Notes: generated from the letters alone by a model not told the origin. Positions 786 to 16,260 are shown, counted from the first letter of the stretch. The stretch: 46,132 nucleotides of DNA from Candidatus Aenigmatarchaeota archaeon (GCA_039000165.1 JAWBTW010000006.1:1-46132); one strand, 5' to 3'. Numbers and translations are program-made.

Positions 786-2381
786 ATGATTAAAAACATA
801 AGGTTTTTAGTAGTTTTAGCTTTTTTAGCAATTTCTGCTTACTTTTTGCTTGCTCCTTTACTTTTTGCATCAAAAGGGGTTGTTGTAGTTTCCATAGATG
901 AAAATAGTAAGTGTGAAGGAATAAGGGAGGGAAGCATAATAACTGAAATGCGTGGTACAGCAATTTCAAGCGAAGAAGATTTTGAAAATTATTTGAAAAA
1001 TGTTAAGCAAGGGGAATACGTAAGCATGGTAATAAACAACTTGCCAGGAGGTTGCACAGCTTTAAACGATAGCTACTTGGGAATAAAAGTAAGAGATTTA
1101 GAAAAGAAAGTTTTAAAGTTTGGAATTGATTTAGCAGGGGGAAAAGTTTCGATTTTTTCTTCACCACAAAACCTAGAAAAAGTGAAAGAAATTCTGGAGA
1201 AAAGAATAGAAATTTTTAAAGTTCCTGAAGCCAGCGTTTCGATTTCTGACAAAACAATAAAAATAATAAGTTTGAAAGATGAGAAGCTTGAACCTTTACT
1301 TATAAAAGGAAAATTTGAGGCAAAAATCTTTGAGGAAATTAAAATAAAAAACAACACTGGAAAAATTCCTCTTGGACAAGAGGATTACACTATAGTCCTT
1401 GAAGATGGTAAGATAAAAATTGATGGAAATTACTACAAAGAAAACGAAACCTTTACTTTACAATCCATAGAATTTACGTTAAAAAACATAACTAACTCAA
1501 GTGTTTATCTTGAAGCTCTAGTTTTCACAAAAGAAGATGTAAAAGTTCTAGCATATGGGTTTGTAAAGTATAACCCCTCAGCAAAACTTTACGAGTTTAA
1601 TATTCCTGTAGAAATTTCTGAAGAAGCTTCTGAAAGAATTTCAAAGATCATAGACAGGATGCCGACAACAACAGAATTTGGAGCTATAGTTTTAAACGGA
1701 AGGTTAATTTACTATTTAGATGGAAAAGAAGTTAGCAACCTAGCAATTCCCTTTAGCATGGTTGGGAGAAAAATTGAGAGCATTTCTATCCTTGGTTTTA
1801 GAGAAAGTGAAGAGGCAGCAAGCCTAGAGAAAAACAAAATTGAAGCTTCTTTAAAAACAGATGAGCTTGAAAAGATGGAATTAATTAAAACAGTTGAACT
1901 AGAAGCAAAATACCCGATGCTTTTAAATTATTTTTTCCTCGTCTCAATTTTAGAGGCGGCCATTTTTTCTTTAATTTCTTTTACTAGATATAAACAAGGA
2001 AAATTTTTAATTTCACTGTTCCTTCTTTCTTTACTTCAAATCTTCTTGATATTTGGGGTTATAGCAATTTCGCAAAGCTTAGTTCCAAACAGCTGGTTAA
2101 TAAATTCTTCCACTCTTTTTGGAAGCTTAACAGCAGAGACCTTAACTTTAATTCAATTTATGTTTATTCTTGAGAAAAGAGTGAGAAAAAAAATAATAAG
2201 CTTAGAATTCAAGTTAAAAAAGATAATAAGTTTATCCAACCTTCTAAACATTTTAACGATATTTTCTTCTCTCGTTCTTATTTTTGTTTTCAAAAACTTT
2301 GGATTAAGCATGCTAACAGGTTTTTTCTTTAGCTTTCTATTTTTAGTCCCACTTCTTGATGAAATAGTAAAATCTACTTGA
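786..2381 (+). CDS. secD: Divergent SecD-like translocase subunit with N-terminal PDZ-like domain
   Basis: N-terminal TM, PDZ-like segment (GVVVVSIDENS...GIREGSIITEM), SecD signature LKFGIDLAGG, 'ILEKRI', C-terminal TM helices. Confidence 0.7.
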   Translation: MIKNIRFLVVLAFLAISAYFLLAPLLFASKGVVVVSIDENSKCEGIREGSIITEMRGTAISSEEDFENYLKNVKQGEYVSMVINNLPGGCTALNDSYLGIKVRDLEKKVLKFGIDLAGGKVSIFSSPQNLEKVKEILEKRIEIFKVPEASVSISDKTIKIISLKDEKLEPLLIKGKFEAKIFEEIKIKNNTGKIPLGQEDYTIVLEDGKIKIDGNYYKENETFTLQSIEFTLKNITNSSVYLEALVFTKEDVKVLAYGFVKYNPSAKLYEFNIPVEISEEASERISKIIDRMPTTTEFGAIVLNGRLIYYLDGKEVSNLAIPFSMVGRKIESISILGFRESEEAASLEKNKIEASLKTDELEKMELIKTVELEAKYPMLLNYFFLVSILEAAIFSLISFTRYKQGKFLISLFLLSLLQIFLIFGVIAISQSLVPNSWLINSSTLFGSLTAETLTLIQFMFILEKRVRKKIISLEFKLKKIISLSNLLNILTIFSSLVLIFVFKNFGLSMLTGFFFSFLFLVPLLDEIVKST

Positions 2382-2904
2382 AAATTTTTCCTAAAATTTT
2401 TGAAGAAGCTCTTTCTGGTAAAGCTTTAGGAAAAACCAAACCTAAGAGAGCTCCAACGATAACATCCGAAGGATAATGCACACCTGAATAGATTGAAGAA
2501 AGAGGAATCAGGAAAAGCAAGTATATCGATAAAAATTTTTTAAGCCAGCTTGGAGAGTTTTCTGGAATAAAGAAAAAAGAAAGATAGGATATGAAGGCAT
2601 GGGAAGAAGGAAAGGATGGGTCTGCTTTCTTGAAAACAACATTTATCTCCTGGTCTGCATCATAAGGCCTTTCTCTTCCAACTAAATATTTAAGTGAAAC
2701 GACAAAAATATAGCCAATAACGGCAACAACAAAAAGATGGAAAAGTTTCTTATGTTGTCTATTTCTAAATAAATCATAAGCGACATAAATCAAGTAAATA
2801 TAAACAGAATAAATAAGGAAAATTGCGAAATAAGCTAAGTGAACAGAAAAAAAGTTAACGTTGAGAAATTTTACAACTTCCAAATCTACCTCGGCTAAAT
2901 TCAT
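2374..2904 (-). CDS. PAP2-family membrane phosphatase
   Basis: K-x6-RP, SFPSSH, GVHYPSDV motifs; hydrophobic segments. Confidence 0.9.
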   Translation of the reverse strand: MNLAEVDLEVVKFLNVNFFSVHLAYFAIFLIYSVYIYLIYVAYDLFRNRQHKKLFHLFVVAVIGYIFVVSLKYLVGRERPYDADQEINVVFKKADPSFPSSHAFISYLSFFFIPENSPSWLKKFLSIYLLFLIPLSSIYSGVHYPSDVIVGALLGLVFPKALPERASSKILGKIFK

Positions 2905-5588
2905 AGCCTGACATACCTCCCTCTTGTCTCACCAAAGTAAAACAGAAGTTCGCCACCACAAACTAAACATTTTCCGATTAAAGGAACTCTTCTGAAGGTT
3001 TTATTACATTTGTTACAAACAAAACCGTCAAAATCGCTCAAAACTTCTTCTTGTTTCTTGTGATTAAAAGCTTCTGAAATGGAGAGAAGCCTTCCAAAAC
3101 TCATAAGCTCGGACTTTTTAACTCCTAAAGCATCGAAAACCCTTTCCAAAGGTGGAAGGAGCTGGCTTTCTATATAATATTTTGAGTCGATTTTTAGGTT
3201 GTGAGTTTTAACATACTCTGGATCTTCTGCTCTTTCTGAAAGAAGTTGAGTTCCTTGAATTATCACATAACCAATTCTATCCCCAATTCCCGGAGCTCCT
3301 GCAGGTGACCTTTTTCTTAACTTTTTAACTAATTCAATATGAGGTTGAACTCCTTTGTATTCCTTTAAAGATTTTGTTATTCCTCTGGTAATTATCAAAT
3401 CCTCTATAGGAATCTCATTTCTACTGAGTTTTGTTAAAACTTCTCTAACATATCTTAAAGCTTTTTTCGGGTTCTGCTCCTTCAAAATTATATCAAGAAC
3501 TTTATACAAAGTTTTGGAAACCAGATCACACCAGTCTCTCCTAACAGTTTCTATTCCTTTCATCACTATTTTTTCCTTCCATTCTCCGTTAGATTTTTCG
3601 AAGCTCCAACCTGCATATCTTTTCTTTGTCAACACAAGCAAAGTCTTAAAAATACCTTCTATTTTCATTTTAACTATACCTGCATGCTCTTTGTTTATAA
3701 ACTCAGCTAACTCTTCACCTAACTTTAAAGCTTCTTCTAAATCAGTTGTTAAAAGCTTCACCATTATAGAATCTGTATCGCCATAAACAACCTCATAACC
3801 TTTCTTACTTTCAACAATATTCTTTGTTTTTTCTATCAAAAACCTTCCACAGCTTGTTATCGCGTTTGCGATTTCCAAAACATAAAGCCTTGCTCTTACA
3901 TAGCCTGTATATCCATAAAAGGCGTTTGCCATTATTTTCAGGGCATATTGCTTCGCATCTAAAACTTTTTTCTCGTTTTCGTTTTTTGCCTTCTCCATTT
4001 CTTTCTTAACCCTGTCTCTTTCTTCTATCAAAAATTTCAAAATTTTGGGAATAATTCCTTCCCTTACTTCCTTCCTTACAAAAAAAGCACCAGAAGGTGT
4101 TTTTATGAGCTCACCTTCACTTTCCTTGACAACCAAAGTCGTTGGACAAATGTTAAAAGAAATAAATATAGAAGGATACATCGAACGGAAGTCAAGATAA
4201 GCAACACAATTCGTATGCAGACCAACTTTTGGCTCTAGAACCAAAGCTCCCTTCAAACCTTTTACTTCTCTTTCTTCCATTCTTTTGAAAACTTCATCAG
4301 AAGAAGGCTTAACAGGGATAACAAAATCTCTCTTGTTAAATTCACGAAGCAATAAGTTCTCTACTCTTGCACTTTCTTTACTGTCTAAAACATCTTGCAA
4401 AAGTAAACCTGAAACTTTTGAAAGTTCCACAAATTTACTCAACATGTCCTTCTCCACTAAAAGTTTCAAGGTAAGTTCAGCATCCTTTCTTGCATAATTT
4501 ATCAATTCGTGCTTCTGCTCTTCAGAACCGTTCCAGAATTTTGAAATCTCACTATGAGTTATATCGACTTTATCTTCCTTCAGCAATTCTTTCGCAACAT
4601 CTCCTAGGCCGTACCTTTTAAGCCTAAGCAAGCCTTTTTCGACAGCCTCTTTAACAAGCTCATAAACATCAACCACAACCCTCCCAAAAACAGAGTGTCT
4701 ATACCTGATGCCAACTTTCTTTGAACTTGTAGCTTTTTGCTGGCACCTTCCTAAAACTCTTGGTATTTTGTTAACTCTTAACCTTTCAAGAATGTATGGT
4801 AAATCAAAATTGTTTATGTTGTAACCAACTATCACATCCGGATCGAATTTTTTTATCACTTCGACAAACTCCTGGAGCATTTCAGCCTCATTTGAAAAAA
4901 CGACAACATCCTTTTCAAATTTTTTAACAGGTTTTGAAACTAAAACTAATGTATTGTTGTTTTCGTAAGCAGGAAAAAAGGAAAGGCTTATTATTATTAT
5001 CGGGTCTTTTAAAGGGTTGGGTGTACCTTCCTTTCCTGGAACAACTTCTATATCTAAGCTTAAGTATTTTAGGTTAACATTTGATTTTTCATCTATACTT
5101 TCAATTTTTCTTACTTTAATCACTTTATCTGCCTTGACAAGAATAGTGTTCATGTTTTGACCCTCAACTTTAATCCAACCCATTCCCGAAATGTTAAAGT
5201 CTGCCATAAATCTGTATTTGAAAAGGATGTCTGCTTCAAAAATCTTATCGATAAAATCTTTTTTGTTAAGCTCCTCTCTTATTTCTGGAACTTTGGAAGG
5301 ATCAGTAAGAGTTACTCTTAACATTTTTACCTTATTCTTGCTGAATCCTATTGGTAAAAATTTTTCCTCTTCCTTAATTTCAACTAATAAGGAGAAAAAT
5401 TTTTTCTTCATAAAATCCACAAACTCTTGCTCGCAACCTTTTTTAGGTAAAACGTAAAAATAAGGTAAAAAATTCTCGTAAAAGGCACAAACTGTTTTTC
5501 CTTCTTTCGTTTTTCCGAAAATTCTTATTATTGGTTTGCCGTCTAAAGGAATGTAATCGCAGTCAAGAACTTGAAATATCACTTCCAT
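2901..5588 (-). CDS. polB: Family-B DNA polymerase with C-terminal DP2-like zinc finger
   Basis: ExoI DIE, ExoII YNINNFD, ExoIII YARKD; Pol motifs DFRSMYPS, KIMANAFYG, YGDTDS; C-terminal CNKC-x-RRVPLIGKCLVCGG. Confidence 0.97.
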   Translation of the reverse strand: MEVIFQVLDCDYIPLDGKPIIRIFGKTKEGKTVCAFYENFLPYFYVLPKKGCEQEFVDFMKKKFFSLLVEIKEEEKFLPIGFSKNKVKMLRVTLTDPSKVPEIREELNKKDFIDKIFEADILFKYRFMADFNISGMGWIKVEGQNMNTILVKADKVIKVRKIESIDEKSNVNLKYLSLDIEVVPGKEGTPNPLKDPIIIISLSFFPAYENNNTLVLVSKPVKKFEKDVVVFSNEAEMLQEFVEVIKKFDPDVIVGYNINNFDLPYILERLRVNKIPRVLGRCQQKATSSKKVGIRYRHSVFGRVVVDVYELVKEAVEKGLLRLKRYGLGDVAKELLKEDKVDITHSEISKFWNGSEEQKHELINYARKDAELTLKLLVEKDMLSKFVELSKVSGLLLQDVLDSKESARVENLLLREFNKRDFVIPVKPSSDEVFKRMEEREVKGLKGALVLEPKVGLHTNCVAYLDFRSMYPSIFISFNICPTTLVVKESEGELIKTPSGAFFVRKEVREGIIPKILKFLIEERDRVKKEMEKAKNENEKKVLDAKQYALKIMANAFYGYTGYVRARLYVLEIANAITSCGRFLIEKTKNIVESKKGYEVVYGDTDSIMVKLLTTDLEEALKLGEELAEFINKEHAGIVKMKIEGIFKTLLVLTKKRYAGWSFEKSNGEWKEKIVMKGIETVRRDWCDLVSKTLYKVLDIILKEQNPKKALRYVREVLTKLSRNEIPIEDLIITRGITKSLKEYKGVQPHIELVKKLRKRSPAGAPGIGDRIGYVIIQGTQLLSERAEDPEYVKTHNLKIDSKYYIESQLLPPLERVFDALGVKKSELMSFGRLLSISEAFNHKKQEEVLSDFDGFVCNKCNKTFRRVPLIGKCLVCGGELLFYFGETRGRYVRL

Positions 5589-5597
5589 ATTCTTAAA

Positions 5598-6767
5598 TTA
5601 AGTGAAATCTATTTTAATAGTTTCTCTTGTTTTTAAGTTAACTAACCAAAAAACAGGTTTGGTTAAAAAACTTCCTGTGGTTAGGATTGTTGTTCCCTTG
5701 TAATTTAAAACTGAAGGAAAATGAAAATGACCAGAAGCTAAAATATCTGGAACTAAATCTATGATGAATGGGTTTGGGATGTAAATTTGCTTTTGTGTTT
5801 GTGGGATTTGTCTCTTCCTGAGTATGTTTAATAAAATCTTTTCAGGTAGAGCATTGAAAAAAGAAAAATCAAAATTTGGATGAAGAATTAGAAGATTTAA
5901 GGATTTTTCAACTTTAAGAAATGATGGACTTTCTATGAATTCTTCTTTTTCTGGATCTATCTCTCCCTTAAGCCAGGTATAATGGTAGCCTTTTGGTAAG
6001 TTACTAAACATTTCTTCAAAATCCTCAACTCTTGAAGAAATGTCGCCAAGAAAAAAAACATAAAGTTTTTTGTATAAGGAGTTGTTTATCCAATCTAAAA
6101 ATTTCTCATAACTTTTTTTGTTGAAATTCTTGTCATCCATATGAAAATCTGAAACAAAAAGACAAAAAGCCTCTTCAGAAGTTTTACTAATTTCTTTTTT
6201 AAGTGGAATTTCAGGTAAAACAACCTTTTTCACATAAATCCTTTCACCTTCTCTTTCACAAACCAAACCTAAAACTTCATCTTCAAGAATAAAGTTAAAA
6301 TCTTCACTCAAATTCTCAAAGTAAACTGTTTGTTCGCCAGTTAAGTCTTCCACTACCAAATACTTTTCGTTCTCATTTTTTTCTTTCACCATAACTATTA
6401 ATGAAAACTTCCTTGATTTTGGTGAGATTTTATTTATTGATATTAAATTAACTAAGTCCAAATGCTTAACCAAAAATTTTTTTATTTCCTCATATTTTGT
6501 GGAAAGGAAGTTAGTATAATCAGAAACGCTTAGAATCTTATCTTCTTTTTTCGGAGTTTTTAAGATTTCTGAGTAATAGGTTAACTTTTTTTCTATTTCT
6601 TTTAAAACATCTAGAGTCACTATTAAGGGGTAGTTTGATTTTTTTAGTTCTTCCAAGTAGAAATTTATGTTCTTTTTTTCAAGTAAGTAATCTAGTGCTT
6701 GTGGGTTTAGTTGGAAGCCGTTTTTCAAAAATTCCTTAATAATTTGTTGCCTTTCCATACAACTCAT
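5598..6767 (-). CDS. PolD small-subunit (DP1)/B-subunit-like protein, probably nuclease-degenerate
   Basis: N-terminal helical domain (IIKEFLKNGFQLNPQALDYL), OB fold (IVMVKEK...VEDLTG...ILEDEVLG), phosphoesterase motifs SDFH, GD, PDILASGHFH, YKGTTIL. Confidence 0.85.
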   Translation of the reverse strand: MSCMERQQIIKEFLKNGFQLNPQALDYLLEKKNINFYLEELKKSNYPLIVTLDVLKEIEKKLTYYSEILKTPKKEDKILSVSDYTNFLSTKYEEIKKFLVKHLDLVNLISINKISPKSRKFSLIVMVKEKNENEKYLVVEDLTGEQTVYFENLSEDFNFILEDEVLGLVCEREGERIYVKKVVLPEIPLKKEISKTSEEAFCLFVSDFHMDDKNFNKKSYEKFLDWINNSLYKKLYVFFLGDISSRVEDFEEMFSNLPKGYHYTWLKGEIDPEKEEFIESPSFLKVEKSLNLLILHPNFDFSFFNALPEKILLNILRKRQIPQTQKQIYIPNPFIIDLVPDILASGHFHFPSVLNYKGTTILTTGSFLTKPVFWLVNLKTRETIKIDFT

Positions 6768-6775
6768 AGGAATTT

Positions 6776-7033
6776 TTATCTTTTTAATATATAAACTGTA
6801 AGACCTTTCTTACCTTCTTTTTTAGAATGAGGTGTTGGGATTGCTTCTATTTTTCCAATTTCAACAAGTTCGTTTAAATATTTATCTACAGTGTTCCAAC
6901 TAACTTCCTTACCAATTTTTTCACTAATCATACTACGAATTGCGTTTATAGAAATAGGGGTGTTTACATCTTTCAAAACTTCCACTATAAGGTTTTGAAC
7001 TTCAAACCTTTTACTTGGTCTTCCTCTTTTCAT
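6776..7033 (-). CDS. Small winged-helix protein
   Basis: 85 aa; basic N-terminus KRGRP, HTH (SINAIRSMISEK...VSWNTVDKYLNELVEIGKI) and wing; 8 nt upstream of the DP1-like gene. Confidence 0.75.
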   Translation of the reverse strand: MKRGRPSKRFEVQNLIVEVLKDVNTPISINAIRSMISEKIGKEVSWNTVDKYLNELVEIGKIEAIPTPHSKKEGKKGLTVYILKR

Positions 7034-7048
7034 CTTTTCACTATCATT

Positions 7049-7062
7049 TTTTATGAACTTTC
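7049..7062 (-). repeat. Inverted copy of the array core (GAAAGTTCATAAAA on minus strand)
   Basis: TTTTATGAACTTTC is the exact reverse complement of the 14-mer repeated in 7122-7207. Confidence 0.85.
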
Positions 7063-7071
7063 TAAATTAAG

Positions 7072-7080
7072 TATAAATAA
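7072..7080 (-). promoter_or_regulatory. Putative TATA box of the wHTH-DP1-polB operon
   Basis: TTATTTATA on the minus strand about 40 nt upstream of ATG 7033. Confidence 0.5.
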
Positions 7081-7121
7081 ACAATATAAAATTTTCAGGA
7101 AATTTTTTTACCTTATTACTT

Positions 7122-7207
7122 TTCATAAAATTTTTCCGAAAGTTCATAAAAATTGTTTGAAAGTTCATAAAATTTTTCCGAAAGTTCATAAAAATTGTTT
7201 TTGAAAA
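7122..7207 (+). repeat. Four tandem 21-bp direct repeats in ABAB arrangement
   Basis: TTCATAAAATTTTTCCGAAAG (7122, 7164) alternating with TTCATAAAAATTGTTTGAAAG (7143; variant at 7185). Confidence 0.92.
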
Positions 7208-7282
7208 TTATTAGAAGTGAAGAATTTTGAAAAACATTAAATTTCTTATAATATACAGCTATTCAAAAAATTTTCCAAATCT

Positions 7283-7669
7283 TTACAAAAATTTCATCAA
7301 CCCATTTATCATGAAGAATTTTATGATGATAGCTCGAACAAAATTTTCTTTTCCCCTTAGTGGTTCATAGCTGGTTGGGTTGGAATGTTTTACTTTCACT
7401 AACAAATTCATCTTAACCAATTTGTTAAGCCTTTTTCTTAACGCTTCTATCCCTATCTTAAAGTGGTGAGTGTTCTTAAGTTCGCTATAAAGAAGTGGAA
7501 AACAATACGGTTGAGTATCGTTTGGAAACTCTTTACCTGTCATGTAAAATTTTCTTAAAATTTGAATGTCAATAAAATCCAAACGTTCGATTAAAGATAG
7601 AATTTCATCCTTCATTTCTAAATTTTTTTCTATAGAGATATTATCCATAAGTGAATCTGTGCTGTTCAT
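7283..7669 (-). CDS. Winged-helix protein of unknown function
   Basis: LDFIDIQILRKFY, HTH-like LLYSELK...IGIEALRKRLNKLVKMNLLVKV, wing NPTSY; ends LMKFL. Confidence 0.65.
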   Translation of the reverse strand: MNSTDSLMDNISIEKNLEMKDEILSLIERLDFIDIQILRKFYMTGKEFPNDTQPYCFPLLYSELKNTHHFKIGIEALRKRLNKLVKMNLLVKVKHSNPTSYEPLRGKENFVRAIIIKFFMINGLMKFL

Positions 7670-7752
7670 TTTTTATCCCATCATCGAGTAAGTAAAATAA
7701 ATGTGATTATTTTTTCCTCTTCAATAATAAATACATTTCGGTAATTCAGAAT

Positions 7753-8439
7753 TTATATCAGATTGATTATTTTAACGTCAATTTTTTCATCGACAATATC
7801 GATTATTCCACAATACCCTTCGGGAAATCTCCCAGAATTTATTATCTTTGTGTTTTCAATTTCGTCAATTCCTCTTGCTTCATGCACATGTGAGCATATC
7901 GCAACTTTTGGTTTATACTTTTCTATAAAATTTCTTACAGCTTCTGATCCTATATGTGCTCCTGTATAAGCAATATCAACCTTCGTGTTAAACGGAGGAA
8001 CATGGGTAACTTGAATTTTTATCTTACATTCTTTCACTTTTTCATAACCTTTCCTCAAACCTTCTTCAATCTCATTTTCATTGGGTTCTAAAGGTGTGTT
8101 AAAAGGAGTTTTAGCACCACCAAACCCATAAAAACCAACGTTTTCTATTATCTTTCCTTCACCATGCAGGCTTATTCCTTTTTCTTTAAATAATTCTACA
8201 AGTTCCTTATCAAAATTTCCTGGAACTGCAAGTATAGGTTTTTTAAAAGTTTTAAATTCTTCTATTACAAGCTCACCTATATCCCTAGCTTCAAAACCTT
8301 TAGGAAGATTGTAATCAGTGAAGTCTCCAAGCAAAACTATAACATCAAAATTTATGAAAGAAATTTTATCCATGTAAGTAATTATGTTTTCAACATCGTT
8401 ATGGATGTCGCTTGCGATTAAAATCCTCATTAAACTCAA
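7753..8439 (-). CDS. Calcineurin-like metallophosphoesterase (Icc-related)
   Basis: SDIH, GDFTD, PGNFD, THVPP, HVHE motifs. Confidence 0.9.
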   Translation of the reverse strand: MSLMRILIASDIHNDVENIITYMDKISFINFDVIVLLGDFTDYNLPKGFEARDIGELVIEEFKTFKKPILAVPGNFDKELVELFKEKGISLHGEGKIIENVGFYGFGGAKTPFNTPLEPNENEIEEGLRKGYEKVKECKIKIQVTHVPPFNTKVDIAYTGAHIGSEAVRNFIEKYKPKVAICSHVHEARGIDEIENTKIINSGRFPEGYCGIIDIVDEKIDVKIINLI

Positions 8440-8469
8440 TATATTAAATCACTATATAAAAATAAATTG

Positions 8470-8802
8470 ATGGTAGTTAGCAAGAAAAAAGGTTATAGGG
8501 TTGAAAGGAAAATAAGAAAAATTTTTGAAAGTTATGGTTGGAAAGTTGTAAGGGCAGGGGCAAGCCTAGGAGAGGCGGATCTAATCTGCATAAAAAATAA
8601 AAAATGTATCTTATTACAAATCAAATCAACAAAAAAAGACGCTTTATACTATAAAGGTTATTTTTCCGATAAGTTTGAAGGATTTCCTTTTTATGTAGTG
8701 GTGGACTTCGGTTATGGAAAAATTAGAATAACAAAGCCGAAGGAAAAAATCACCCTGGAAGAAGGAAAGGAATTAGAGGATTTCCTAAAAAATATTAAAT
8801 AA
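8470..8802 (+). CDS. hjc: Holliday junction resolvase Hjc
   Basis: KKGYRVERK...GWKVVRAGAS...ADLI...QIKST. Confidence 0.85.
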   Translation: MVVSKKKGYRVERKIRKIFESYGWKVVRAGASLGEADLICIKNKKCILLQIKSTKKDALYYKGYFSDKFEGFPFYVVVDFGYGKIRITKPKEKITLEEGKELEDFLKNIK

Positions 8803-8831
8803 GTAAGCTATAATATTAAAAGGAAGATTTT

Positions 8832-9380
8832 ATGCCTGTACTAGTTAAAGACATAATGAGCAGGCCTGCAGTAACTATAGAAGAAAATAAATCAGCAAAA
8901 GTTGCAGGCGAACTAATGAAAAAGAAAAGAAAAGGAGCCTTAATAGTCGTAAGAAAAGGAAAACCAGTTGGTATTATAACAGACAGTGATTTGATAAGGA
9001 AAGTTGTAGCAAAAAACCTGAAACCTTCTGAAGTTAAGGTTAAGGATATAATGTCAAAACCTTTGGTGACTATTGGCCCAGAAGAGAATATAATAGAGGC
9101 AAGTAGAAAAATGAAAAGAAGTAATATAAAAAGGTTGCCAGTAGTGGAAAACGGAAAAGTTGTTGGTGTACTTTCCTTGACAGACATAGCAAAGACTTCT
9201 CCAGAAATGCTTGATTTACTTGAATACAGGTTAAGGATGAGGGAAGAGCCATTTGGTATAAAGGAAAAATTCACTTCAGGAATTTGTGAGAACTGTGGGA
9301 ATTATAGCGAGCGTTTAACTGAAGTTAACAATCAATGGGTTTGTGAAGATTGTAAGGATGAACTTGAAAGCGAATATTAA
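8832..9380 (+). CDS. CBS-pair protein with C-terminal zinc ribbon
   Basis: Two VKDIMS CBS repeats; GICENC...WVCEDC. Confidence 0.9.
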   Translation: MPVLVKDIMSRPAVTIEENKSAKVAGELMKKKRKGALIVVRKGKPVGIITDSDLIRKVVAKNLKPSEVKVKDIMSKPLVTIGPEENIIEASRKMKRSNIKRLPVVENGKVVGVLSLTDIAKTSPEMLDLLEYRLRMREEPFGIKEKFTSGICENCGNYSERLTEVNNQWVCEDCKDELESEY

Positions 9381-9388
9381 ATGGTTTT

Positions 9389-9859
9389 ATGCTTACCGAT
9401 AAAATTAGGGAAATTCAAAAAGAAATATTAAACTTCAAAGGAGTACCCATAATAGTAGAAGGAAAAAAAGATGAGGAAGCTTTAAAGAGGCTTGGTTTTC
9501 AAAATATTGTAAAGATTTCCGGCAAACCCTTGGAGAAAGTTTTTGAAGAAGTTAGCAATTTCAAATCTGTTGTCATTCTTTCAGATTTCGATGAAGAGGG
9601 TAAAAAAATTTTTGCAAAATTGAGAAAATTACTCTCTTCAAATGGAATAAAAGTTCACACTTTTTTAAGGAACAAGATTAAATCAACTCTCAAAATCAAA
9701 AAAATTGAAGAAATAAACTCTTTAACAAAGCTTATGGAGGATGATTACTATGGCAAAACTTGCTCAATCTACGATAAAATATTTAATAGAAGTAGAATTT
9801 TCTTGCGACGGGATGGTGGAAAAACCAGACGTAATAGGGGCAATATTCGGGCAAACTGA
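9389..9859 (+). CDS. Small TOPRIM-domain protein (RNase M5-like)
   Basis: IIVEGKKD and ILSDFDEEG TOPRIM motifs. Confidence 0.85.
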   Translation: MLTDKIREIQKEILNFKGVPIIVEGKKDEEALKRLGFQNIVKISGKPLEKVFEEVSNFKSVVILSDFDEEGKKIFAKLRKLLSSNGIKVHTFLRNKIKSTLKIKKIEEINSLTKLMEDDYYGKTCSIYDKIFNRSRIFLRRDGGKTRRNRGNIRAN

Positions 9860-10607
9860 AGGTTTGCTTGGTCAAGATTTGGATTTAAGGGAATTGCAAA
9901 GAAGTGGAAGAATAGGAAGAATAGATGTTGAACTTAACGTGACTGAAGAAGGAAAAACTATTGGTAAGTTCTTTGTTCCTTCAAGTCTTGATTCTTCAGA
10001 AACAGCTTTACTAGCAGCTTCTTTTGAGACTATAGAAAGAATTGGACCATGCAACGCAAAGGTTAAAGTTAAAACAGTAAAGGATGTGAGAAATGCTAAG
10101 AGGGATTATGTTCTTAAAAGGGCGAACGAGATTTTAGAAAAACTTTTGAGCGAAGAGATTCCTTCAACTTCAAAAATTACTGAGCTACTAAGGGAAAACG
10201 TGAGAGCTGCACAGATAACCGAATTTCAAGGCTTACCAGCAGGCCCTGATGTTCAAAATTCAGACGAAATAATAGTAGTTGAGGGAAGAGCAGATGTTAT
10301 TAACCTCTTGAAAAATGGGATTAAGAATGTTATCGCAATAGGAGGAGCAACAATACCTAAAACAATAATAGATTTGACAAAAGAAAAAGTTACGACTTTG
10401 TTTGTAGATGGTGATAGAGGAGGAGAACTAATCATCAAAGAGCTTCTTAACCTCGGTGAAATCGATTATATAGCAAGAGCACCAGAAGGTAAAGAAGTGG
10501 AAGAACTAACAAAAAAAGAAATTTTTAAAGCTTTGAGAGAAAGGATTTCTATCGAGCAATATAAACCTGAAGTCAAAACTAAGGAGCTAACTGAATTTAC
10601 CCAATAA
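9750..10607 (+). CDS. dnaG: Archaeal DnaG (primase-like/exosome-associated), short form
   Basis: VEKPDVIGAIFGQTEGLLG, ELQRSGRIGRI, VVEGRADV, DGDRGG, GKEVEEL. Confidence 0.93.
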   Translation: MAKLAQSTIKYLIEVEFSCDGMVEKPDVIGAIFGQTEGLLGQDLDLRELQRSGRIGRIDVELNVTEEGKTIGKFFVPSSLDSSETALLAASFETIERIGPCNAKVKVKTVKDVRNAKRDYVLKRANEILEKLLSEEIPSTSKITELLRENVRAAQITEFQGLPAGPDVQNSDEIIVVEGRADVINLLKNGIKNVIAIGGATIPKTIIDLTKEKVTTLFVDGDRGGELIIKELLNLGEIDYIARAPEGKEVEELTKKEIFKALRERISIEQYKPEVKTKELTEFTQ

Positions 10608-14023: not shown

Positions 14024-14100
14024 AATCAACAATTAACTTTTTTTAAATTGTTTTTATTAAAACTTAAAAAGAGTTTGCAACTTAAGTTTAAAGTGTGTTT

Positions 14101-16260
14101 ATGAAAGACGAAGAAATTATAGAAAAAGTTTTGGAAGTTTCAAAGTTTGAAAAGCTTAATCCTGTGCAAGAAGAAGCTATAAAGAAAGGTTTGCTTAAGG
14201 GAAAAAATTTAGTGATATTTGCGCCTACTGCAAGCGGAAAAACGCTTTGTGCAGAACTTGCAGCCGTTAAAACAATACTTGAAAAAAGAGAAAAAGTTGT
14301 TTACATGGTTCCTTTAGTTGCCTTAGCAAACGAAAAGTATAAGGATTTTAAAGAAAAGTACTCTAAGCTTGGAATAAAAGTTGCTTTATCTGTTGGAGAT
14401 TTGGATAATTCTGATCCATGGCTTAAGAATTATGATTTAATCGTTGTTTCAAACGAAAAAATGGATAGTTTAATAAGACATGGAGCTGATTGGATTGCAG
14501 AAGTTGGGCTAATAGTTGTTGATGAAATCCATCTCTTACAACAAGCAGACAGAGGGCCAACTTTAGAAATAGTTCTAACTCTTCTAAGAAAACTTATTCC
14601 AAACGCACAGGTTATCGCTTTATCTGCTACGATAAAAAATGCAGAAGAATTAGCTGAATGGTTAAGCGCAGAGACTGTTATTTCTGAGTGGAGACCTGTA
14701 AAGCTCTATAAAGGAGTAAGCTTTCCATATAGGATAAAGTTTTTGGAAAAAAATGGCTATGAGTTAGACTCAAGCTTACCTTTAGAAGCTTCAATCATAA
14801 AAAACACCTTAGAATCAAGGAAACAGGCTTTGTTTTTTGTTTCTACTAGAAAAAGTGCAGAAAGCTTGGCAGAAAAGTTAGGAAAAGTTGTGAGTCAATA
14901 CTTAGGAAGAAAAGAGAAAGAAGATTTAGAGGGTTTGGCAAATGAAGTTGAAAGTGTGCTAGAGATTCCAACGCAGCAATGTAAAAAATTGGCAAGATGT
15001 ATTAGACAAGGAGTTGCTTTTCATCATGCCGGCCTTCTTTTCCAACAAAAATCTTTGATAGAGGAGAATTTTAGAAAAGGTTTGATTAAGGTTATAGTTG
15101 CAACCCCAACCTTAGCTTATGGTGTTAATTTACCTAGTTGGCGTGTAATAATGAGGGATCTAAAGAGGTATCAACCAGGAATAGGTGCTGTTTTTGTTTC
15201 AATTTTAGATGTTCAACAAATGCTTGGAAGGGCTGGAAGACCACAATACGATGATTTCGGTGAAGGCATAATTTTGTCAAAAAGTGAAGAAGAGGCAGAA
15301 GAAATTATAGAATATTACATTTATGGTGAAGCAGAAGAAATTCAGTCAAAACTGGCAGCAGAACCTGCTTTGAGAATGCACACTTTAGCTTTAATAGCAA
15401 ACGAATTTTGTAAAACAGAAAAATCTTTGCTAGAATTTTTTTCAGAAACTTTTTTTGCTTATCAGTATGGGGAAGTTTCGATTATAAAAGAAAAAATTTT
15501 AGAAATTTTGAAATTACTTGAGGAATGGAAGTTTATCGAGAGAAAAAAAGAAAAACTTAGTGCTACAAGGATAGGAAGAAGGGTTTCTGAACTTTACATT
15601 GATCCTTTAACCGCAAACTATTTTATCCAATCTCTTAAAAAAGCAACAAAAAAGGAAGTTCAGCCTTTCAGCTTTTTACAAGTTATTTGTAACACAATAG
15701 AAATGAAACCTTTGTTAGGCATAAGAACTGGCGAATTTTCAGAATTAAACGAAAAAATTGCTGAAAGGGAAAGTTTGTTTTTACAAAAAATACCAGAAGA
15801 ATGGGATTTGGAATTTGACGATTTTTTAAGAAGTGTTAAAACAGCTTTAATGTTTGAAGCTTGGATAAACGAAGCAAGCGAGGAAGAAATTTTAACAAAA
15901 TTTAAAGTTGCACCAGGAGAATTTTACGGAAGAAGAGAAATAGCAGATTGGTTAATTTATTCTTTGCAGGAGCTTGCCCTTCTTCTAGGTTACAAGAAAT
16001 TGCTTTTGCCTATAAGAAAGCTTAGGGTTAGACTTGAGTATGGGGTAAAAGAAGAGCTTTTACCTTTGGTAAGACTAAAAGGAATAGGACGGATAAGAGC
16101 AAGGAAATTGTTTAATTCTGGAATCAAAACCATTTCTGACTTGAAAAAAATTCCTTTAGAAAGTTTGGCTAGGCTTGTTGGGGAAAAAACAGCGTATAAA
16201 ATCAAAGAGCAGTTAGGGGAAATTAGGAAAAAAGAAGAAAGGCAAATTACTTTAAGATAA
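14101..16260 (+). CDS. hel308: Ski2-like DNA helicase Hel308/Hjm
   Basis: [31 protein letters not shown]-terminal Hh[11 protein letters not shown]. Confidence 0.95.

Follow-up and report, generated by a model that had tools for sequence, protein, structure and literature searches.

What is a small winged-helix protein doing at the head of a DNA polymerase operon? The question is raised by the window, by which we mean the whole stretch of DNA that was analysed (46,132 nt). It is the entire contig C6 (46 kb) of the genome of an uncultured Aenigmatarchaeota archaeon, G000, whose assembly is 783 kb and about 92% complete. Its minus strand carries a string of genes for wHTH85, an 85-residue winged-helix protein, followed by a DP1-like small polymerase subunit, a family B DNA polymerase (PolB) and a PAP2 phosphatase-family membrane protein (Table 1). 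The initial annotation had read this string as an apparent operon with gaps of 8, 9 and -4 nt, with which the coordinates and the Pfam match of PAP2 agree, and had proposed two possible roles for wHTH85, a third polymerase subunit or an autoregulator that binds the repeats next to its gene. Met4 of the DP1-like protein was invariant in 30 of 30 orthologues, and consequently the DP1-like start may lie 9 nt further on and the gap to wHTH85 may be 17 nt.

Table 1. Features of the wHTH85 locus, its surroundings and the Orc1/Cdc6 gene of the same genome (coordinates are those of the window unless a contig is named).
Feature	Coordinates	Strand	Remarks
PAP2 phosphatase-family membrane protein	2374..2904	-	Pfam E 3.5e-19; start overlaps PolB stop by 4 nt
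Family B DNA polymerase (PolB)	2901..5588	-	CxxC...CxxC finger at the C-terminus; this part is similar to the end of PolD large subunits
DP1-like small polymerase subunit, 389 aa	5598..6767	-	Probable true start Met4
wHTH85, 85-aa winged-helix protein	6776..7033	-	ATG start; N-terminal MKRGRP AT-hook-like arm
Intergenic region, 249 nt	7034..7282	.	18.5% G+C; matches the place of the sister-family oriC
Proximal box GAAAGTTCATAAAA	7049..7062	-	Gene orientation; ends 15 nt before the wHTH85 ATG
Spacer between inverted boxes, 75 nt	7063..7137	.	14.7% G+C (window mean 32.3%)
Weaker fourth distal core TTCATAAAA	7122-7130		Inside the 75-nt spacer
Three exact distal boxes GAAAGTTCATAAAA	7138..7193	+	At 7138, 7159 and 7180, so 21 nt apart; opposite in orientation to the proximal box
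up128, second lineage-specific winged-helix protein, 128 aa	7283..7669	-	Far side of the boxes from wHTH85
Metallophosphoesterase	7753-8439	-	Upstream end of the minus-strand gene string
Hjc-type Holliday junction resolvase	8467-8802	+
Toprim-domain ORF	9389-9859	+
Toprim-domain ORF	9741-10607	+
Hel308-like helicase	14095-16260	+
Cdc6-B, sole Orc1/Cdc6 of G000, 360 aa	G000 C3:36541-37623	-	Cdc6_C domain kept

The DP1-like protein matched PolD small-subunit models, with scores below their cut-offs. Its 30 orthologues had few invariant columns and had not kept the phosphoesterase motifs, which fits the published view of an inactive DP1. The PolB appears to be B6-aenigma1, an assignment based on its one-finger C-terminus and its phylum. 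Kazlauskas et al. (2020; PMC7544198) described B6-aenigma PolBs with zinc-finger C-termini and an inactivated DP1 in those Aenigmarchaeota that have no DP2, and this PolB-finger and inactivated-DP1 polymerase was proposed there as a model of where the replicative polymerases of eukaryotes come from. The main text of that paper does not use the terms winged, operon, neighb-, third subunit, Pol32 or C-subunit. The neighbourhood of the polymerase genes is rich in replication and repair genes, as the Hjc-type resolvase and the Hel308-like helicase lie within 8 kb. The two Toprim-domain ORFs share 119 nt, which they read in different frames, and may represent either two genes or one frameshifted DnaG-like gene. 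Metatranscriptome reads on positions 2300-9500 numbered 0 in three raw-read runs of the same study (about 3-5% of each run was read) and one contig run.

The wHTH85 protein begins MKRGRPSKR and is basic (pI 9.9, with 17 Lys and Arg versus 10 Asp and Glu), and it joins the MKRGRP arm to a winged helix of three helices, with a basic beta hairpin as its wing. In 52 aligned wHTH85 sequences the residues R3, G4, R5, W46, N47, T48, K51, Y52, E55 and P68 were invariant and P6 was retained in at least 90%; the invariant residues from W46 to E55 correspond to the third helix, which is the putative recognition helix. The codons under the fixed residues varied among 30 loci (six for Arg3, four for Gly4, five for Arg5 and four for Pro6), and because codons vary while residues stay fixed, wHTH85 is no chance ORF and is under protein-level selection. 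The AlphaFold2 model was a winged helix (pLDDT 88.7) with the order H-H-H-strand-strand, its elements being helices 8-23, 29-40 and 46-58 and strands 62-68 and 76-83, so that three helices are followed by the two-stranded beta hairpin of a winged-helix fold. Foldseek assigned a probability of 1.00 to matches with many winged-helix domains. The top matches were PadR/LmrR, Fur/Zur, TA0346, RTP (the Bacillus replication terminator protein) and Hop2 DNA-binding domains, with Foldseek E values of 4e-4 to 5e-3 and VIA Z scores of 9.3-10.9, and Atlas agreed. These matches were generic, with a Z of at least 8 for 170 chains, and included histone H1/H5 globular domains. The winged helix of Cdc6 or Pol32 was not among the matches listed, which excludes nothing because generic winged helices dominate those lists. 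Together, the model, the fold matches and the codon turnover confirmed the 85-residue winged-helix ORF with a basic KRGRP N-terminus that had initially been annotated.

Database searches with wHTH85 returned few relatives. The sole Pfam family to pass was the TBPIP/Hop2 winged helix (PF07106), at 23.1 bits versus a cut-off of 22.8 (E 7e-5). We rejected the assignment of wHTH85 as a Hop2-type protein because the margin was 0.3 bit and the protein stops at the wing, without a coiled coil. The Pfam AT_hook model had no match in wHTH85 at E up to 1, no NCBIfam family matched, the best E in PHROGs was only 0.019, and a sequence search of solved structures yielded nothing (best E 0.74). Viral contigs contained no relatives of wHTH85 or up128. 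A database search identified 28 wHTH85 relatives, almost all of 85 residues, and a profile search of 1.84 billion representative proteins identified just 89 at E up to 0.001. Of these, 85 were stand-alone proteins of 57-136 residues fused to nothing; three of the four longer relatives had HTH/winged-helix Pfam domains alone and one was without a significant family. An RGRP arm that precedes a helix-turn-helix typically sits in an AT-rich minor groove beside the major-groove contact. The invariant RGRP arm and recognition helix, as read from the alignment, point to DNA binding by wHTH85.

To place the gene in its phylum, genomes (often incomplete) were sampled and labelled by family, with f1 being the family of the window. 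wHTH85 was matched in 55 of 201 genomes, among them 38/41 in f1, 9/9 in f3, 1/1 in f5, 1/1 in f6, 3/17 in f13 and 2/2 in f21, with 0/12 in f2 and 0/1 in f4; the f13 and f21 matches were weaker and had the DP1-like gene on different contigs. The DP1-like protein was matched in 159 of the 201 genomes. The three f1 genomes without a wHTH85 match were likewise without a DP1-like match, and the locus is probably unassembled in them since the two are missing together. Conserved linkage in related genomes had been named beforehand as a test of the annotation, and it was borne out: wHTH85 immediately preceded DP1-like and PolB at every one of the 29 relatives' loci that were fetched, counts that are not independent as the genomes are related. 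Among 30 loci, counting that of the window, 27 separated wHTH85 from DP1-like by 0-69 nt, one had a gap of -4 and the remaining two had over-extended ORF calls. One genome, G013, has two wHTH85/DP1-like pairs, on contigs C2 (36927-37821) and C21 (753-2022), for which duplication, strain mixture or a binning artefact are possible. In five loci (L007, L008, L009, L020 and L031) there was an extra coding sequence between up128 and wHTH85. That in L020 (1244-1432) is a wHTH85 paralogue of 38% identity, and this spot seems to gather small winged-helix genes.

The polymerase genes also occur without wHTH85, and we fetched 14 DP1-like loci from families that do not have it. In 12 of these 14 sister loci a gene of about 400 residues immediately preceded DP1-like in the same orientation; in a further one (L040) it was adjacent on the opposite strand, and the last, L042, had a canonical 512-aa DP1 and neither this gene nor PolB. 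All six of the slot genes that were tested were Orc1/Cdc6 (Cdc6_lid plus Cdc6_C, E 1e-23 to 1e-30), and all 13 aligned at 50-73% identity. A counterpart of the window's phosphoesterase was likewise upstream in four f2 loci (L033, L034, L035 and L045), which gives an f2 order of phosphoesterase, intergenic region, Cdc6, DP1-like and PolB. The counterpart order in f1 is up128, intergenic region and then wHTH85 where f2 has Cdc6. The zinc motif was at the end of 10/10 sister PolBs examined, with no wHTH85 in the slot. These findings were important for the co-occurrence of wHTH85 with finger-bearing PolBs, which the initial annotation had suggested as a check and which did not hold: wHTH85 is found with the polymerase pair in f1, f3, f5 and f6, but f2 has DP1-like in 12/12 genomes and wHTH85 in none. 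Because sister families have the pair without the gene, a finger-bearing PolB/DP1-like pair does not need wHTH85, and because Cdc6 fills the same tight slot in those families, tight linkage implies no polymerase contact.

The sister intergenic region contained inverted pairs of TTCCAnnnGAAAnnnnGGGGT-type origin recognition box (ORB) elements flanking an AT-rich stretch with a TATAACAnTGTTATA palindrome at its centre, and a short ORB-like element overlapped the BRE/TATA sequence some 22 nt ahead of Cdc6. To judge by its sequence, this region is a textbook canonical archaeal origin layout. It agrees with the archaeal origins described in PMC4010727, and archaeal origins are reported to adjoin their initiator gene (PMC3607249; PMC4010727). 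An ORB weight matrix, built from 13 ORBs and hence circular for those training sites and not for their inverted partners, identified inverted ORB pairs in 13/13 Cdc6 loci, with scores of 14-32. A second ORB group was observed downstream of PolB in L034 (5968-6049), L035 (311-395), L045 (61-142) and L038 (519-542), such that the Cdc6/DP1-like/PolB block is bracketed by ORB clusters in several of these loci. The bracketed block may be likened to the two ORB clusters around cdc6 in Thermococcales, whose members are also described as sharing the oriC-cdc6-dp1 order (PMC1904270).

The wHTH85 loci were different in this respect. In the same matrix scan 0/29 of them had an ORB scoring 13 or more; the best score in the entire G000 assembly was 14.8, and 800 kb of G082, a genome of the same genus, had one isolated match of 20.0. 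The TATAACAnTGTTATA palindrome was retained upstream of wHTH85 in about 15 f1, f3 and f6 loci despite the loss of the ORBs. It was absent from the locus in the window's genus, and a relocated palindrome there was considered and rejected, as the sole palindrome-like matches in G000 and G082 lay in short divergent promoter regions that differed between the two genomes.

The Orc1/Cdc6 proteins themselves follow the same division. Genomes of f2 hold two Cdc6 paralogues, the polymerase-linked A copy, which is close to Sulfolobus Cdc6-1 (2qby_A, E 1e-104), and a second copy, B. The sole Orc1/Cdc6 of G000 is of the B type, being 37% identical to A and having 2qby_A as its nearest match at E 1e-51. 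Its gene starts 4 nt inside the preceding 533-aa gene and is in an operon with no adjoining intergenic region or repeats, which is unusual for an origin-linked initiator, and the f2 copies of Cdc6-B are similarly embedded. Stop codons occurred inside the aligned range of several relatives' B-type matches. When A-type Cdc6 was counted at E below 1e-170 across 76 genomes of the order, it was present in f2 (20/23) and f4 (1/1) and absent from f1 (0/28), f3 (0/19), f5 (0/1), f6 (0/3) and f33 (0/1), the reverse of the distribution of wHTH85 and up128. In profile searches of five f2 genomes, up128 was found in 0/5 and wHTH85 gave one weak match (E 0.002) inside a 258-aa frame. Descent of the small proteins from Cdc6 was rejected: hhalign of wHTH85 against 13 Cdc6-A sequences gave a probability of 0.2%, with no PF09079 match at E up to 1, and up128 against Cdc6-A gave 0.06%. 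No homology was detectable between wHTH85 and up128 (hhalign 1.2%). A quick DP1-like tree of 42 rows was poorly resolved, needing two label changes of which well-supported branches force only one, so the swap may be a single event and the co-distribution counts as about one observation. A literature search on Aenigmarchaeota or DPANN with origin, ORB or Cdc6 found no paper describing the swap.

What occupies the intergenic region in place of the ORBs is a set of boxes. Exact GAAAGTTCATAAAA occurs four times in the G000 assembly, all within 7049-7193, and the locus has the only cluster of at least three boxes (1 mismatch allowed) in that genome; the same was true in the 800 kb of G082. The repeats that the initial annotation had placed at 7040-7210 are thus real. 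Moreover, as inverted repeats flanking an AT-rich stretch beside the wHTH85 gene, they have the layout of an archaeal replicator-initiator pair. When up to 1 mismatch was allowed, the 330 nt that precede wHTH85 contained 54 GAAAGTTYATA sites, spread over 23 of 30 loci, a density of 5.66 per kb. Elsewhere in these loci the density was 0.30 per kb, about 19x lower, and genome-wide it was 0.17 per kb; among the 54 sites the counts from four same-genus loci are circular because the pattern was derived from the window. The other 7/30 loci had no box at 1 mismatch or fewer, and the 13 sister Cdc6-A upstream regions had 0 sites. Rfam found nothing near gathering scores on 6500-8000.

The boxes were also phased. 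Of 42 spacings between same-strand TTCATA neighbours, 24 were 19-22 nt and three were 42-44 nt, equal to two or four helical turns. Many genera follow a common plan: inverted copies lie furthest out, between -260 and -400, the palindrome comes next, between -130 and -150, and a direct copy stands close to the gene, between -20 and -45. This distal-inverted and proximal-direct layout round an AT-rich centre extends to three further families. A related box with an unchanged TTCATAAAA core formed arrays in seven more loci, which belong to f3, f6 and one divergent genus of f1, and a distal inverted GAAAGGTCATAAAA often accompanied it. In these more distant f3/f6 forms and their divergent f1 counterparts, the wHTH85 arm was GR(T/R)P or RGRK and the SWNTVKKY helix was unchanged.

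The position of the proximal box, which resembles an archaeal BRE/TATA element, requires some care. It was 7-32 nt before the ATG across loci and 23-32 nt in many genera, such that it overlaps the promoter distance in some genera and is too near the ATG in others. In the window's genus it was 15-16 nt from the ATG, with a GTGA Shine-Dalgarno-like element between them; at that distance, which is too near for a promoter that yields a leadered mRNA, we infer that it would lie at or after the transcript start and would not serve as a TATA box. An unrelated gene for a 700-aa protein also has a one-mismatch copy, 23 nt ahead of its own ATG.

The second small protein of the locus, up128, was well conserved (44-91% identity), with a predicted MarR/ArsR/TubR-like winged-helix fold and no Pfam family above cut-off. 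Its gene flanked the intergenic region in 25 of 29 wHTH85 loci. Among the five genomes of further families that were searched, up128 was found in four and flanked the region in three of those four. It was not found in G063, a 91% complete genome in which the boxes and wHTH85 are present. Based on its position, up128 is a possible alternative or partner binder of the boxes.

Taken together, these comparisons show a polymerase operon in Aenigmatarchaeota that sits at the ancestral oriC-cdc6-dp1 replication island, and one large lineage in which Cdc6-A and the ORBs have been exchanged in place for small winged-helix genes and phased boxes. Within this setting, we consider it most likely that wHTH85 binds the phased repeats rather than serving as a polymerase subunit. 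Our preferred proposal, to which we assign a probability of roughly one half, is that wHTH85 binds the TTCATAAAA-core boxes upstream of its own gene and thereby autoregulates the polymerase operon. This proposal is supported by the invariant arm and helix, by the sole box cluster being at the protein's own promoter and by the phasing of the boxes, and also by the constancy of both the TTCATAAAA core and the recognition helix, each of which has flanks that drift.

If the proposal is correct, the recognition helix SWNTVxKYLxEL would read the GTTCAT part of the box through the major groove, with the RGRP arm at the N-terminus placed in the minor groove of the neighbouring A-tract. As a monomer, wHTH85 would fill boxes that are two helical turns apart, and occupation of the proximal box, at or just past the BRE/TATA element, would throttle transcription of wHTH85, DP1-like and PolB. 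The region acted on would descend from the chromosomal origin that sister families have kept beside Cdc6. The proximal copy may simply be a promoter, however, because the box resembles BRE/TATA and has the one-mismatch copy at an unrelated gene, and up128 or Cdc6-B could be the box binder instead. With regard to the two readings in the initial annotation, an autoregulator acting on the adjacent repeats fits the invariant arm and helix, the repressor-like folds and the clustered, phased boxes, and the third polymerase subunit is left with linkage as its only support.

A larger role is conceivable for the same boxes, and we raise it tentatively: wHTH85, alone or with up128, may mark the chromosomal origin through iteron-like boxes flanking an AT-rich unwinding stretch, in replacement of Cdc6-A and the ORBs, and MCM loading would then pass through the remaining divergent Cdc6-B. 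This is nested within the box-binding proposal because both require box binding. The slot that wHTH85 occupies is held by Orc1/Cdc6 in most of the sister loci, where every such gene has its ORB pairs; in the wHTH85 loci the palindrome has often outlived the ORBs; A-type Cdc6 and wHTH85 are complementary across families of the order; and Cdc6-B lies inside an operon with neither an intergenic region nor repeats beside it. There is also a precedent in Sulfolobus, in which oriC3 is described as requiring the winged-helix protein WhiP but no Orc1/Cdc6 (PMC3607249; PMC4010727). Against such a role, a single winged helix of 85 residues has no ATPase and no known MCM-recruiting part, making helicase loading by wHTH85 alone impossible, and the cumulative GC skew of 800 kb of G082:C1, in which the locus is at about 751 kb, followed the coding strand with no clean turning point. 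In addition, the window's genus has lost the origin palindrome, the swap was possibly a single evolutionary event, and Cdc6-B or up128 could bind the boxes themselves.

The corresponding evolutionary scenario is similarly speculative: in several Aenigmatarchaeota families the ancestral origin may have changed its recognition system in place, to wHTH85, up128 and phased TTCATAAAA boxes beside the eukaryote-like PolB-finger/DP1 operon, with Cdc6-B either confined to helicase loading or uninvolved. If wHTH85 does specify an origin, it would join WhiP as the second natural example of an origin on an archaeal chromosome that something other than Orc1/Cdc6 defines, and the old and new origin states could be compared locus by locus. 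If wHTH85 merely autoregulates, it would be an ordinary small repressor in an unusual place.

We think it unlikely that wHTH85 instead has a general part in chromatin or the nucleoid or controls distant genes, with the boxes being bound by up128 or Cdc6-B or representing promoter-like duplications. Its high pI and the histone H1/H5 domains among the fold matches are consistent with such a role, as are the co-travelling of up128 with the locus and the likeness of the boxes to BRE/TATA, but a recognition helix that does not vary argues for a single fixed target, the genome has its sole box cluster at the wHTH85 promoter, and G063 combines boxes and wHTH85 with no up128 found. Least credible of all, and in our estimation very improbable, is a third subunit of the PolB/DP1-like polymerase that resembles Pol32/p66 and docks on the B subunit by an N-terminal winged helix, for which the tight conserved linkage and the joint presence or absence of wHTH85 and DP1-like in f1 would speak, whereas f2 has the polymerase pair with its zinc motif and no wHTH85, the invariant residues are those expected for DNA contact, the arm and winged helix use all 85 residues with no linker or PIP-type tail, and nearly all relatives are fused to nothing.

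Several known systems resemble parts of this locus. WhiP at oriC3 of Sulfolobus is described as a winged-helix protein encoded beside an origin without classic ORBs that binds AT-rich repeats (PMC3607249; PMC4010727). WhiP is larger, tandem and Cdt1-related, whereas wHTH85 is a single winged helix with an RGRP arm, a distinction drawn from descriptions of WhiP. On the basis of that single domain of 85 residues, wHTH85 as a WhiP/Cdt1-like initiator was rejected. The Orc1-1/Cdc6 and ORB system shares the slot upstream of DP1-like and an AT-rich stretch with inverted repeats, but wHTH85 has no AAA+ domain and the boxes are without the ORB G-string.

Iteron-binding plasmid Rep proteins (RepA, pi and RepE) have winged-helix domains, bind direct repeats that stand about 21-22 bp apart and have an autorepression site at their own promoter. 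Boxes at a spacing of 21-22 nt, one of them near the gene's own promoter, are likewise present at wHTH85 loci; these Reps are plasmid-borne and carry two winged-helix domains, where wHTH85 has one. Fission-yeast Orc4, a eukaryotic ORC subunit, has nine AT-hooks for RGRP-type minor-groove recognition of AT-rich origins, compared with the single AT-hook-like arm joined to a winged helix in wHTH85. Pol32/p66, the third subunit of Pol delta, is alike in associating a winged helix with a B-subunit-type protein and a zinc-finger family B polymerase. It differs in that wHTH85 lacks the linker and PCNA-binding tail and in that the archaeal polymerase pair occurs without wHTH85 in sister families.

The closest structural likeness is to small repressors of the PadR/Fur/BlaI type, which gave the best structural matches and whose usual mode is autoregulation from promoter-overlapping sites, as we propose for wHTH85. 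In comparison with these repressors, wHTH85 has an RGRP arm and no dimerisation or ligand domain, and its candidate sites are asymmetric phased repeats, not palindromes.
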